From: an uncultured Bifidobacterium sp.
GTDB lineage: Bacteria > Actinomycetota > Actinomycetes > S36-B12 > UBA5976
Reading direction: 5' to 3'
Assembly (NCBI GenBank): GCA_964655115.1
Contig: CAZZKM010000004.1
Span: forward strand, 1 to 51,342
DNA: 51,342 nucleotides
The notes under the pieces were generated by a model. That model saw only the letters and a program-made list of their open reading frames with translations, searched no databases and was not told the origin of the DNA. Shown in pieces: positions 47,044-51,337 of the stretch. The position numbers and the translations under genes were made by a program. Each line of letters begins with the position of its first letter. Positions within the stretch are counted from its first letter, which is position 1.

Positions 47044-48237
47044 ATGGCCAAAGAAATCTCAGACCGCGTTTTAGCAATTGCCGAATCAGCCACCCTGGCA
47101 GTTGATGCCAAAGCCAAAGCGCTTAAGGCACAAGGTCGTTCGGTAATTGGTTTTGGCGCAGGTGAACCAGATTTTCCAACTCCAGTACACATCGTGGAAG
47201 CTGCACAAAAAGCAGCAAGTGAAGTTTCTAATCACAGATATTCTCCAACTCCAGGTTTAGCAAATTTAAGAGAAGCAATTGCAAATGCTGCAACTAAAGA
47301 TGACGGTTTGGAATTTAAAGCTGATGAAGTAGTTGTAACAAATGGTGGTAAACAAGCAATTTTTAATACTATGGCTACTTTAATTAACCCTGGTGATGAA
47401 GTTTTACTACAAGCCCCATATTGGGTTACCTATCCTGAAGCTGTTCAAATTTTTGGTGGCAAACCAGTTGTAATTAATTCTAATGAAACTACAAACTACA
47501 AAATAAATGTAAATGATTTAGAAAAAGCTTACACAAATAAAACAAAAATGCTTATTTTTGTTTCTCCATCAAATCCAACTGGCACTGTTTACACACCGCA
47601 AGAAGTTAAAGAAATTGGCCAATGGGCAAAAAGTAAAAATATTTGGGTAATGACTGATGAAATTTATCAACATTTAATTTATGAAGGTTCACAATTTTCT
47701 TCAATAGTTGGTTTAGTTCCTGAATTAAAAGACAAATGTGTCATTGTTAATGGTGTGGCAAAAACCTATGCGATGACTGGTTGGCGAGTTGGTTGGACAA
47801 TTGGGCCAAAAGAATTTACAAAAGCATCAATCAATCTGCAATCTCACATGACAAGTAACGTAAACAATATTTCTCAACAGGCAGCATTTGCAGCTTTAAC
47901 CGGCCCGCAAGATATTTTAAAAACAATGTTAAATGCATTTAATAATAGAAGAAAAACAATTGTGAAAATGCTCAATGAAATAAATGGATTTATGTGCCCT
48001 GAACCAGGTGGTGCTTTCTATGTTTATCCATCTGTAAAAAATGTTTTAGGAAAAACAATTAATGGCAAAACGATTAATTCATCCCTTGATCTTGCAAATA
48101 TTGCCTTAGAAGAATCTGATGTGGCATTAGTTCCAGGCGAAGCTTTTGGAACTCCAGGTTATATAAGAATGAGTTATGCCTTAAGTGACAAAGACTTAAT
48201 TGAAGGTGTAACCAGATTACAAAAATTATTTAACTAA
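47044..48237 (+). CDS. aspC: PLP-dependent aminotransferase class I/II (aspartate aminotransferase-like)
   Basis: [40 protein letters not shown]. Conserved position divergent from tRNA-Trp. Confidence 0.9.
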
Positions 48238-49255
48238 TTTTAAGTATTTTTGGTTCTATTTGTAATTCAATTTTAAATTTAGCTAAGACATCACTTCTGA
48301 TTTTTTCGGCTAGAGCAATAATTTCTTGAGCACTAGCATTTCCAGAATTACAAATTGCCAAAGTATGTTTATTCGAGATGTAGGCATTATTAAATTTATA
48401 TCCTTTGTTGAATCCAGCTTGTTCGATCAACCATGCTGCACTTGTTTTAAATTTTCCATCTGGTGCATCATATGTAGGTGCATTTTCTGGAATTTCTTCT
48501 TTTGGCATTACGGGATTTATAAAAAATGAACCAACACTATAGGTATCTGAATCCAAAGGATTTAGAACCATTCCTTTAGATTTTCTTATCTCTAAAATTG
48601 CTTTTCTCAATTCTTTTATTGGTACTAAACTTCCAGGATTTACATTTAGAAAGTTAGCGACCTCAGGATAATTAGTTAAATTTGATTCTTTGGTTTTTTT
48701 AAATCTAAAAGTTACATTTTCAATTATAAATTTTGATTGCATATTTTTTAAACGTGAAGTTCTGTATCCAAATTTAAGTTCTTCATTTGTAAGTTGTCTT
48801 ATTTTGCCAGTTGACCCATCGACAATTTGAAGTGATTTGATTGTGGACTTAACTTCACTTCCATAAGCTCCAACATTTTGAATAGGAGTAGCGCCAATAG
48901 TTCCTGGAATTCCTGAAAGTGTTTCAATTCCTGCAAAACCTTGATCCACGACATCTTCAACAAATTCATCCCAACTAATTCCTGCTCCAGCAGTTATTTC
49001 TATATAGTCATTATCAAGTTTGGTTGTTTGCTTAACTATTTTCATTAATGCAATTGGTGTATTTATTTCATGATCTGGGGCAAGAATATTTGATCCCCCG
49101 CCAAGAACAAAAAAATCTTTATTGCCAAATTCTAAAATGAAATCTTGAATATCAACAGGACTGGTAATTTCGCAAACTGTATGGGCGATTCCGCCTATTC
49201 TTAAACTCGTATGATCTGCAAGTTTAAAATTTTTTAACTTCTTCACATTTGACAT
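48230..49255 (-). CDS. murB: UDP-N-acetylmuramate dehydrogenase
   Basis: [66 protein letters not shown]. The start could be 49255 or 49264. Confidence 0.95.
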
Positions 49256-49268
49256 GTTAATCAATCAT

Positions 49269-50192
49269 TTATCTTCTAGGACTTAAAATTTCAGTTTTTC
49301 CTCTGAAATTTTGAAGTATTCGATCATAAGTTTTCCTGGACTCTTTATCTCGGTATTCAATATCAGAATCATGGTAACCATGATGTCTTTTTTGCTCAAT
49401 CTTTAAATCCTTTGAATAAGCAATTAATTTGTAACCTTCTGTTCTTAGTGAAAGGGACCACTCTAGATCTGCATTTCGATAAAATTTAGCTTTTGAGTTA
49501 GCTGGAATTTGTTTAGCAATTTCTGTTTTGATTATGAAAAAGTAACTTAAAAGTATGTCGACTTCGCCATCGCCTTTATCTTCGACGCTTCTCCATTGAT
49601 CTTCGAGATTTACTAAAGCACCTTTCCAGCCCACCGCTGCAACTTTTTCATCAAATTTTTCTAATAGTTTAGTAAAAACATCTTCAGCGATAATTGAAGA
49701 TAAATCCATAATCACACTGTATGGATTTTCATTAATTTCAATTAGTTTATTTATTGAATTAGCCCAGCCAGCTTCTTGTACAGATTGGCTAAGGTGAATA
49801 ACTTCTATTTGATTTTGGGATTTTGCCTCTTCATTTAAATAGTTTCCGACTTTTTCTTTATTAGCAAATTCAAGAATCAGGATTGAAGTTTCTTCATTTA
49901 AATATTTTAATAAGGATTGCAGGCACTCTTTAGTGTCTTCTAGCCAACCATCTACCAAAAGTAAAACTGTAACTTGGCATTTATTTTTTTGCTTATATTT
50001 AATTGAATTTAAATTTTCAAACACTTCAAACTCAGGTTTTTCAACTAAATCAAAACCAGTGGCAGTATCTTTTACTAAGTATCCTTTTTTCGCAATCTCA
50101 TCCCGTAATTGATCTGATAGTGAATAGTCTTTATTTTTTCTTGCTTCAACTCTTTTTTGTGCTAAATCAATTACTTCTTGAGGAATACTCAT
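49269..50192 (-). CDS. Fusion protein: CysRS C-terminal (anticodon-binding)-like helical domain and GT2/GT-A-like domain
   Basis: Residues 1-50 (LAQKRVEARKNKDYSLSDQLRDEIAKKGYLVKDTATG) match the CysRS C-terminal pattern. The rest has GT-A features (VTVLLLV...ECLQSL, GWANSIN, VIMDLS, FFIIK, NADLEWSLSLRTEGYK). Confidence 0.7.
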   Translation of the reverse strand: MSIPQEVIDLAQKRVEARKNKDYSLSDQLRDEIAKKGYLVKDTATGFDLVEKPEFEVFENLNSIKYKQKNKCQVTVLLLVDGWLEDTKECLQSLLKYLNEETSILILEFANKEKVGNYLNEEAKSQNQIEVIHLSQSVQEAGWANSINKLIEINENPYSVIMDLSSIIAEDVFTKLLEKFDEKVAAVGWKGALVNLEDQWRSVEDKGDGEVDILLSYFFIIKTEIAKQIPANSKAKFYRNADLEWSLSLRTEGYKLIAYSKDLKIEQKRHHGYHDSDIEYRDKESRKTYDRILQNFRGKTEILSPRR

Positions 50193-50195
50193 AAG

Positions 50196-50627
50196 TTATG
50201 AAAGTTGAGCAATAATGATTGAACGACCCAAAACTTTTACACCTTGGCATCTTGCTTCTAATCCAATTTTTATTTGTTTATTATCAATTTTTTCTTCAAT
50301 TTTTCCACTAAATTCTACAAGTGTTCCTTCACTGTTATTTGGAACTACCACTGGAGAAGAAAATTTTACGGAAAAACTTTTTATGGCATTTATATCTTTT
50401 AGCCAATTTGTCACAACATTTCCAGCTATAGCCATAGTTAACATTCCATGCGCTATGACATCTGGAAGTCCAACTGATTTTGCAAATTCTTCGTCCAAAT
50501 GAATTCTATTTTGATCCCCGGATGCATTTGCATAATCTACTAAATCTTGGCGCTTATAAGTATGAGTCAGTTTTGGTAATTCAAACCCCACTTCAACTTC
50601 ATCGAATTTAATAATTGTCATGATCAA
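50196..50627 (-). CDS. MaoC-family (hotdog) dehydratase, HadB-like
   Basis: Hydratase-2 motif YANASGDQNRIHLDEEFA...IAHGMLTM. Confidence 0.88.
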   Translation of the reverse strand: MIMTIIKFDEVEVGFELPKLTHTYKRQDLVDYANASGDQNRIHLDEEFAKSVGLPDVIAHGMLTMAIAGNVVTNWLKDINAIKSFSVKFSSPVVVPNNSEGTLVEFSGKIEEKIDNKQIKIGLEARCQGVKVLGRSIIIAQLS

Positions 50628-51037
50628 CCAGTTCCGCGAGCAATAAGAGTAGCTCTTAGTGTTGCAACATCTTTATTATTTAAATCTTTAACATCACTTC
50701 TAATAGTGATGAAATCATTTCCAACTTTCGTCTTTATATCCTCAATAGTTGAAATGAAAGAAAGTTCGTCTCCTACTTTTACTGGTTTTTTATATTCAAA
50801 ACTTTGCTCACCATGGACAACTTTGTTCCAATCAAGACCAAGTTCGGGATCAAAAAGTGCTACTTGCATTGCACCCATTTGTATTGAAATTAAAAAAGTA
50901 GGACTGGCAAATCCTTCAGAGATATATAAATTTGAATCCCCAATAGATTTCGCAAAATTATCTATCTGATCTTTGGTAACTTTAAAAGTTTCTTTCGAAG
51001 GATAAGACCTATTTAGAAACGCTTGGTTTAGAGCCAC
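50624..51037 (-). CDS. MaoC-family dehydratase N-terminal-domain protein, HadA-like
   Basis: ASPTF...VVHGEQSFEYKKPVKVGDEL. GTG start, directly after rpmG. Confidence 0.85.
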   Translation of the reverse strand: MALNQAFLNRSYPSKETFKVTKDQIDNFAKSIGDSNLYISEGFASPTFLISIQMGAMQVALFDPELGLDWNKVVHGEQSFEYKKPVKVGDELSFISTIEDIKTKVGNDFITIRSDVKDLNNKDVATLRATLIARGTG

Positions 51038-51064: not shown

Positions 51065-51229
51065 TTAACGAGTTTCTTTGTGTTCAGTGTGCTTATTGCA
51101 ACGTGGACAAAACTTTTTAACTTCTAAACGATCTGGATCGTTTCTTCTATTTTTTCTTGTAATGTAATTGCGTTCTTTGCAATCAGCACAAGCCATAGTA
51201 ATTTTTGGACGTACATCGCTTTTTGCCAT
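51065..51229 (-). CDS. rpmG: 50S ribosomal protein L33 (zinc-binding form)
   Basis: Not in the ORF track (54 aa). Manual translation: [54 protein letters not shown]. Confidence 0.97.
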
Positions 51230-51264
51230 TTCACTATCCTTTCGTATTCAAGTTTCTTACCTTG

Positions 51265-51337
51265 TAGCGGAGGCGGGAGTTGAACCCGCGACACAGCGAT
51301 TATGAGCCGCTTGCTCTGCCACCTGAGCTACTCCGCT
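51265..51337 (-). tRNA. tRNA with CAT anticodon, most likely elongator tRNA-Met
   Basis: Acceptor AGCGGAG/CTCCGCT with a paired 1:72 (so not initiator), anticodon arm AGCGG-CTCATAA-TCGCT, T-loop TTCAACT. Sits upstream of rpmG as in other actinobacteria. Ile2 is not excluded. Confidence 0.92.

Follow-up and report, generated by a model that had tools for sequence, protein, structure and literature searches.

The locus and the two domains of its product

We examined a stretch of 51,342 nucleotides (nt), hereafter the window, which covers positions 1 to 51,342 of contig CAZZKM010000004.1 in assembly GCA_964655115.1, deposited for an uncultured Bifidobacterium sp. (GTDB lineage Actinomycetota; Actinomycetes; S36-B12; UBA5976). 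On its minus strand lies an open reading frame (ORF) of 307 amino acids (aa) for a putative glycosyltransferase (GT), hereafter the GT gene, in which a GT2-like domain follows a domain of the type that ends cysteinyl-tRNA synthetase (CysRS). Between 46.5 and 51.3 kb the minus strand carries, in this order, tRNA-Met, rpmG, a hadA-like gene, a hadB-like gene, the GT gene and murB (Table 1); past murB come an aspartate aminotransferase gene in convergent orientation, tRNA-Trp, secE and nusG. Only 3 nt separate the hadB-like stop codon (50196-50198) from the ATG of the GT gene (50192), and 4 nt separate its stop codon (49269-49271) from the TTG start of murB (49264). The ORF, these flanking gaps and a unit headed by tRNA-Met and rpmG were all found as a preliminary description of the DNA had given them. 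The murB start itself is ambiguous, i.e., it may be the TTG at 49264 or an in-frame ATG three codons downstream at 49255.

Table 1. Features of the GT gene, its product and its neighbours in the window; residues are numbered along the 307-aa protein.
Feature	Position	Strand	Basis or remark
tRNA-Met	51264-51337	(-)	heads the gene string
rpmG	51065-51229	(-)	second in the string, after tRNA-Met
hadA-like MaoC dehydratase gene	50624-51037	(-)	Pfam, NCBIfam
hadB-like MaoC dehydratase gene	50196-50627	(-)	Pfam, NCBIfam; immediately upstream of the GT gene
GT gene (307-aa ORF)	49269-50192	(-)	ORF list
murB	48230-49264	(-)	Pfam MurB_C and FAD_binding_4; immediately downstream of the GT gene
N-domain, residues 4-51	50040-50183	(-)	CysRS C-terminal anticodon-binding domain; two helices and a beta-hairpin
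Linker, residues 52-73	49974-50039	(-)	conserved K-P-P/E-F-E motif; packs on the GT domain; pLDDT 85-91
GT-A (GT2-like) domain, residues 74-307	49272-49973	(-)	Foldseek, Pfam GT2, collinearity with CysRS-GT fusions
D163-L-S165 at the DXD position	49698-49706	(-)	variant metal/nucleotide-sugar motif; aligned to D-A-D of GT2 structure 6yv7
Y238-R-N-A-D242-L-E-W	49458-49481	(-)	family signature; putative catalytic acid D242
H270 in R-H-H-G-Y-H-D	49383-49385	(-)	invariant in alignment A2; candidate third metal ligand
R14 (E. coli CysRS R423)			HMMER alignment
R18 (E. coli CysRS R427)			HMMER alignment
Y23 (E. coli CysRS W432)			HMMER alignment
D27 (E. coli CysRS D436)			HMMER alignment
R30 (E. coli CysRS R439)			HMMER alignment

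The full-length protein was modelled by AlphaFold2 (AF2) with a predicted local distance difference test score (pLDDT) of 93.7 and a predicted template modelling score (pTM) of 0.86, and its two domains formed a single compact body. Sequence profiles and structure models recovered both folds, confirming that the two-domain architecture read earlier from the letters is real. Conservation was assessed in two alignments: A1 holds the Nanopelagicales-like lineage only, and A2 adds to that lineage a second actinobacterial class whose proteins are 20-24% identical to the window protein. In the linker, P53 was invariant and F55 at least 90% conserved (A1). No transmembrane segment was detected in the 307 residues (the highest Kyte-Doolittle mean over 19 residues was 1.17), and the protein is predicted to be soluble, with no hydrophobic segment.

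The N-domain was assigned by profile and by fold. Pfam CysS_C (PF23493) matched residues 4-44 with E=5.5e-5 and 23.6 bits (gathering cutoff 23), and when family profiles were compared with the PDB, CysRS C-termini were the sole matches of this part (3tqo, E=4.4e-8; 1li5/1u0b, E=3.8e-7). Residues 1-58 were modelled by AF2 with a pLDDT of 85 as two helices (5-19 and 23-35) and a hairpin (38-51). A fold search of the whole PDB with this model returned as its best match 1u0b_B, the E. coli CysRS-tRNACys complex, with a probability of 1.00, a template modelling (TM) score of 0.75 and a root-mean-square deviation of 1.2 Å over 47 columns at 34% identity; Borrelia CysRS (3sp1) came second and the remaining PDB was not comparable. 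The N-domain can be superimposed on CysRS residues ~410-460. The proposal that the first ~50 residues are the CysRS C-terminal anticodon-binding module therefore stood, and the doubt attached to it, that the N-terminus might not model as that domain, was checked and did not refute it.

R14, D27, R30, G37 and D42 of the N-domain were invariant across classes (A2), R18 and D22 were at least 90% conserved, and position 23 was aromatic across relatives in the alignments. According to the passage of PMC12684709 that cites Hauenstein 2004, R427 and D436 of E. coli CysRS hydrogen-bond to G34 of tRNA-Cys in 1u0b, G34 stacks on W432, and a water network ties it to R423 and D436. R427, W432, D436 and R439 are the residues that were mutated to alter anticodon specificity (PMC13449415). 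By alignment (Table 1), precisely the anticodon-reading, G34-contacting residues of E. coli CysRS are kept in the N-domain. The pattern R..AR..KD(W/F/Y)..(A/S)D.(L/I)RD....G....D...G is common to the window protein and the E. coli CysRS C-terminal domain (~410-461; 1u0b; PF23493); the difference is that the window protein has this domain at its N-terminus, with no synthetase catalytic domain attached.

CysS_C was also met outside this architecture. Tandem CysS_C repeats were observed in database proteins outside the window (P0320/P0370); a 990-aa protein from the transcriptome of the dinoflagellate Gymnodinium smaydae holds 11 CysS_C-matched stretches and a 679-aa metagenomic protein holds 8, so the module also serves as a repeated stand-alone unit. 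The NCBI name 'CysS/YqeB C-terminal domain-containing protein' hinted at the same domain in YqeB; however, E. coli YqeB had no CysS_C match and this candidate was dropped.

The C-terminal 235 residues of the full model were the part that matched GT-A/GT2 structures. Foldseek against the PDB returned SpsA (1h7q, E=6.6e-10), WrtF, TarP, RmlT and K4CP with E ~1e-9 and a probability of 1.0, confirming the GT-A fold proposed earlier. Pfam GT2 (PF00535) scored 21.4 bits over residues 88-187 of the window protein, an AT-rich homologue, i.e., below the gathering cutoff of 23.3, and was passed by relatives (31.4 bits in L096, a locus of another class, and 53-72 bits in the CysRS-GT fusions described below). 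NCBIfam gave a weak similarity to the mycofactocin glycosyltransferase MftF (E ~1e-12). The alignment with 6yv7 bore out the reading of the DXD position as D-L-S, and the late acidic motif NADLEW was present within YRNADLEW (residues 238-245), on which the sequence pattern used to find the family in the genome scan was based.

D163 and S165 were invariant in both A1 and A2, and Y238, R239, A241 and D242 were invariant across classes (A2); the deep invariants of the GT domain are D163, S165, Y238, R239, A241, D242, H270, R281, S285, R291 and R297. In clade f16 the DXD position reads D-P-H. Some GT-A enzymes have D-x-H...H metal sites; by analogy, D-x-[S/H] with a downstream histidine resembles such a site, and H270 is a candidate metal ligand. 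Because a confident GT-A model is combined with invariant active-site-like residues, the GT domain is probably catalytically active. With the inverting GT-A enzymes of family 2 (SpsA, TarP, WrtF, RmlT and DPMS-like proteins) it shares the GT-A fold, an acid after beta-2, an N-G-x-A-x-x-N-like helix and a putative counterpart of the acid in the late 'xED'-type helix. It differs from them in having D-x-S/H for DXD and a family-specific C-terminal segment, R-H-H-G-Y-H-D...S-(K/R)-x-x-Y-x-R, and in that the window protein has no membrane or lipid-carrier anchor and carries a predicted N-terminal tRNA-recognition domain.

Fusions to complete CysRS and spread of the short form

The new finding of the present analysis is a set of fusions in which the entire unit encoded in the window ends a complete CysRS. 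In these proteins of ~725-840 aa (~722-818 aa among the cluster representatives) the whole 307-aa unit was matched at the C-terminus, and Pfam placed tRNA-synt_1e (~15-325) first, CysS_C (~450-494) next and then GT2. Over the full NCBIfam model they scored 357-439 bits, above the equivalog cutoff of 340 for cysS. The CysRS catalytic motifs were intact, HxGN in 113 of 117 and KM[SA]KS in 115 of 117, and the GT part read D-T-S in 110 of 117, with FYRxxD and the K/R-H-x-H-R of the H270 stretch. The window protein was collinear with P0512, a protein of SAR202 type, over residues 436-731 of the latter (BLASTP E=1e-22), and profile A2 aligned to residues 423-749 of P0494 (hhalign E=1.6e-41). The C-terminal ~300 residues of the fusions and the window protein thus have D-x-S, YRxxD and H-x-H-R in common; the difference is the complete CysRS with intact catalytic motifs that stands upstream of the CysS_C-GT unit in the fusions. 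With the C-terminal part of a fusion as the query, 538 proteins were found at E<=0.001, and among the 120 matches listed nearly all were full-length fusions or truncated pieces of them. The named sources were Ktedonobacteraceae, Kouleothrix, Oscillochloris, SAR202, other Chloroflexota and Candidatus Dormibacteria, and NCBI annotates the named fusions as 'cysteine--tRNA ligase' (e.g., MBM24660.1, MQG05471.1, MHB1501512.1).

Judged from these alignments, the actinobacterial protein appears to be the counterpart of the C-terminal end of a CysRS-GT enzyme that is intact in other phyla, and the fusions tie the GT domain to CysRS/tRNA-Cys by a classical Rosetta-stone argument. The link to tRNA and CysRS is stronger than the evidence of the preliminary description allowed, because in Chloroflexota and Dormibacteria the CysS_C-GT unit forms the end of whole CysRS enzymes.

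The short form is itself widespread. We found 825 close homologues, nearly all of 305-317 aa, and at least 559 species-level genomes encode a relative; the best 80 of these were Nanopelagicales- or Sporichthyaceae-like metagenome-assembled genomes. Of 401 evenly sampled Actinomycetota genomes, 60 (~15%) had a full-length match at E<=1e-32, spread over the family of the window and several families from other classes, and a further 13 had partial or GT-only matches. Large Streptomyces-like and Mycobacterium-like genomes matched through cysS only. A second actinobacterial class contributed more than 2,700 sequences, many labelled 'cysteinyl-tRNA synthetase' by the Joint Genome Institute (JGI) and others 'GT2 family glycosyltransferase'. 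An exhaustive profile search of 1.84 billion cluster representatives (50% identity) returned 228 at E<=1e-30 and 1,460 at E<=1e-10. Sphaerisporangium rufum is a cultured carrier (WP_203990466.1, 447 aa, with a long linker). The GT family is large and old, and the concern that the gene might be a degraded cysS remnant limited to one genome is answered by the species counts and the ~15% share above.

Two observations concern the records themselves. In one relative (L102, G116:C4:482036-482909), the N-domain and the GT domain lie in different frames, 67 nt apart, i.e., in a frameshifted copy or through a sequencing error. The labels 'Bifidobacterium breve' and 'Rubrivirga sp.' on several contigs of freshwater metagenome-assembled genomes with acI/Nanopelagicales-type synteny (L007, L017, L029, L050, L056 and others) are apparent taxonomy mislabels.

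tRNA-Cys as the candidate target

We favour, with a probability of roughly 0.45, the reading that the protein is a cytoplasmic glycosyltransferase directed to tRNA-Cys. The N-domain would dock on the GCA anticodon of tRNA-Cys as in CysRS, and the GT domain would then use a nucleotide-sugar to glycosylate an acceptor on the docked tRNA. The likeliest acceptor would be a nucleoside of the anticodon loop or adjoining it (positions 32-38, e.g., A37 or a derivative); the cysteinyl group of Cys-tRNA-Cys would be a less likely one, which only a dimeric or flexible arrangement would bring within reach. In a tRNA, ~70 Å separate the anticodon from the acceptor end, and because the GT domain packs beside the anticodon domain, far from the CCA end, the anticodon loop is favoured over the cysteinyl group. 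The short actinobacterial form may have arisen from a cysS-GT fusion, by fission or by partial duplication, with the targeting module as the one part of CysRS retained. Targeting of tRNA-Cys is favoured because the short form keeps exactly the anticodon-reading module, because the G34-contact residues are invariant across classes, and because in the fusions the GT domain is joined to complete CysRS at the end that holds the anticodon domain; the retained module, the invariant residues and the fusion are hard to explain jointly in any other way.

A related possibility is that the aminoacyl moiety is the target, the enzyme glycosylating the cysteine of Cys-tRNA-Cys or otherwise moving a group onto or off it. 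A fused CysRS that is catalytically intact fits channelling of Cys-tRNA-Cys, and cysteine S-glycosylation is possible for GT2 enzymes. Yet the GT domain is attached beside the anticodon domain, which by 1u0b and the compact model would put it far from the CCA end; modification of bulk Cys-tRNA would hit every cysteine codon; and we know of no GT-A enzyme that uses aminoacyl-tRNA. We regard this possibility as improbable. Its precedent is LysX, a LysRS-MprF protein in which an aminoacyl-tRNA synthetase (aaRS) feeds its tRNA product to the enzyme fused to it (PMC5388404). The CysRS-GT fusions resemble LysX in that a housekeeping-type aaRS is joined to a second, tRNA-linked enzyme; they differ in having a GT-A partner in place of an aminoacyl-lipid synthase. 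A complete aaRS fusion of the LysRS-MprF type is found in the Chloroflexota and Dormibacteria homologues and is absent from the window protein, which keeps the anticodon domain alone.

Several points weigh against a tRNA-Cys-directed glycosyltransferase. The residues that contact G34 in CysRS also define the domain family, and their conservation could be partly structural. The canonical DXD is replaced by D-x-S in most of the GT family. Family f18 is consistently GT-only, at ~250 aa, and lacks the N-domain, i.e., the targeting module is dispensable there. The proteins of the family are acidic (median pI ~5, net charge -12 to -17), and there is thus no sign of an extended surface for binding the RNA backbone. 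We know of no glycosylated nucleoside in bacterial tRNA-Cys. Between GT-positive and GT-less genomes no difference in tRNA-Cys was seen, the anticodon loop being CUGCAAA in all, and the tRNA-Cys of a GT-less 4.1-Mb genome (G165) was 100% identical to that of the window genome. One candidate for a GT-specific feature of tRNA-Cys, a G:C pair at 27:43, was present in 4 GT-positive examples but also in the GT-less G165 with its identical tRNA-Cys, and it was rejected.

Some of these points bear equally on the possibility that there is no tRNA-directed catalysis at all, the N-domain being a leftover of cysS-GT fission or the GT domain a catalytically dead scaffold. The non-canonical D-x-S, the score of the window protein below the Pfam GT2 threshold and the loss of the N-domain in f18 would suit it. 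A mere leftover, however, would hardly keep its invariant surface residues at 20-24% identity over thousands of sequences, and the invariance of D163, S165, D242 and H270 is unlike a dead enzyme. We hold this possibility to be very improbable.

As to precedent for a tRNA-Cys-directed glycosyltransferase, QTGAL/B3GNTL1 is an animal galactosyltransferase of the GT2 family that acts on queuosine-34 of tRNA-Tyr and, to our knowledge, it represents the only known kind of tRNA glycosyltransferase with a GT2/GT-A fold. Both proteins have a GT2-type catalytic domain, and the acceptor of QTGAL is an anticodon-loop nucleoside. tRNA-Cys (GCA) carries no queuosine, and QTGAL, as far as we know, lacks a CysRS-type anticodon domain. 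LysX, described above, is a second functional analogy and a precedent for this reading too. The glycosylated tRNA nucleosides of which we are aware, galactosyl- and mannosyl-queuosine, come from animals only. We propose tentatively that the window protein may be the first bacterial tRNA glycosyltransferase, placing a sugar on an anticodon-loop nucleoside or the cysteinyl group of tRNA-Cys. The component domains, CysS_C and GT-A/GT2, are known; their combination is without a characterised member. Our literature searches on the CysS_C-GT architecture, CysRS-GT fusions, hadAB-linked glycosyltransferases and tRNA glycosyltransferases found nothing on this family, in agreement with the earlier statement that no characterised protein of this architecture was known.

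Genes for tRNA-Cys and CysRS were also located elsewhere in the genomes. A tRNA-Gly/tRNA-Cys/tRNA-Val gene cluster is conserved across the phylum (C6:1076-1147 in the window's own genome; L110-L124). The same genome, streamlined to 1.36 Mb, has three CysRS-superfamily genes outside the window. Two are full cysS genes with anticodon domains, on C11 (L093:271-1656) and on C1 (L094:1483-2901, minus strand), for products of 461 and 472 aa; both products are above the TIGR00435 cutoff, and the second cysS has an HVGN motif, as in the CysRS part of the fusions. An MshC-like frame of 410 aa lies at C9:10457-11551 and scores 359 bits to TIGR03447 (cutoff 485).

Neighbourhood of the gene, other acceptors and significance

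In the window, no terminator-like sites were seen on the minus strand from rpmG to murB. Contigs from freshwater metatranscriptomes bridge the hadB/GT junction (50065-50212 and 50193-50342) and one such contig bridges the GT/murB junction (49241-49421), all at low depth and with DNA carry-over possible. Across 80 Nanopelagicales-like loci the order rpmG-hadA-hadB-GT-murB-(aspC)-secE-nusG was kept wherever the contig reached. In families f16, f19 and f55, all outside the window's class, the GT gene again follows rpmG-hadA-hadB, and next to come is either a gene for an extracytoplasmic function (ECF) sigma factor or secE-nusG with nothing between; murB adjoined the GT gene at no other-class locus. 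In two other actinobacterial families (L105:7931-8527 and L104:7975-8541) the slot that murB fills in the window, immediately after the GT homologue, is taken by an ECF sigma factor that is not of the SigH type. The hadA/hadB pair is the most widely conserved neighbour of the GT gene, which is set inside an ancient rpmG...secE-nusG string of translation genes.

The preliminary description had taken the GT gene to be inserted between the hadB-like gene and murB, against a usual actinobacterial order in which the MaoC gene runs directly to murB. Of this, the usual order was found in part: among nine sampled GT-less actinomycetes, hadB adjoins murB in four, and the others include hadB(-hadC)-secE-nusG. 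Insertion is made unlikely by the same position after hadB across classes. Because the GT gene comes after hadB in at least four families, of which three belong to other classes than that of the window, it is probably an ancestral resident that was lost in most Actinomycetes. The linkage to murB is specific to the Nanopelagicales-like group and is weak evidence for a role in the envelope.

Four further families have the GT gene at another site, where it is tail-to-tail with ftsH, which in turn diverges from a sigH/sigR-rsrA-like pair. This conserved block was observed in other-class Actinomycetota at L096:7007-11457, L106:6997-11575, L095 and L097; it comprises an ECF sigma factor of the sigH/sigR type (TIGR02947, 272 bits) and an RsrA-like anti-sigma factor (TIGR03988, 61 bits), and a PAS protein comes next in L096. 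The block may reflect a link to thiol stress or plain synteny.

These neighbourhoods bear on an acceptor other than RNA, such as a small molecule (e.g., a precursor of a low-molecular-weight thiol), a protein cysteine or an envelope intermediate, with the CysRS domain as a sensor or docking module that would bind uncharged tRNA-Cys and so couple activity to cysteine supply, or would dock on CysRS. GT2 enzymes mostly act on sugars, lipids and peptides, as the nearest folds SpsA, TarP, WrtF and RmlT illustrate, and GT2 S-glycosyltransferases that act on cysteine thiols exist (e.g., SunS). The weak MftF similarity, the position of murB next downstream in the Nanopelagicales-like lineage, the thiol-stress pair near the GT gene in another class, the acidity of the proteins and an f18 that does without the N-domain would all suit such an acceptor. 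However, the murB linkage is limited to one lineage; the sigH block is not co-oriented with the GT gene, and ftsH lies between them, convergent with it; and the protein has no membrane anchor. Moreover, a non-RNA acceptor leaves unexplained both the invariant anticodon-reading residues and the fact that the GT domain, where fused, is invariably joined to complete CysRS at its anticodon-domain end. We consider it somewhat unlikely, but it is the main rival of the tRNA-Cys reading and has substantial weight.

A specific form of this idea, that the protein is an alternative to the mycothiol ligase MshC, was tried and rejected. The window protein has no CysRS-like catalytic domain, a feature of MshC, and the window genome has both an MshC-like gene and the GT gene, so that there is no clean complementarity between the two. 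Among 31 GT-positive genomes, MshC above the cutoff was found in none, and several, the window genome with its 359 bits included, had MshC-like genes at 360-410 bits.

If the protein does act on tRNA-Cys, such an enzyme would be new for bacteria and would point to an unknown tRNA modification in highly abundant freshwater and marine bacteria, its carriers being acI/Nanopelagicales-like and other-class Actinomycetota, SAR202 and other Chloroflexota, and Dormibacteria. Outside Actinomycetota, CysRS itself would install the modification in cis, and the anticodon domain of an aaRS would prove to be reusable for aiming another enzyme at one tRNA. The labels 'cysteine--tRNA ligase' on the fusions and 'cysteinyl-tRNA synthetase' on JGI short forms would then hide a second, putative activity. 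If the acceptor is not RNA, the conserved coupling of CysRS to a glycosyltransferase would still tie translation to glycosylation in a way that calls for explanation. The carrier lineages dominate lakes and the deep ocean, and any change in cysteine decoding or thiol metabolism would thus have ecological consequences.

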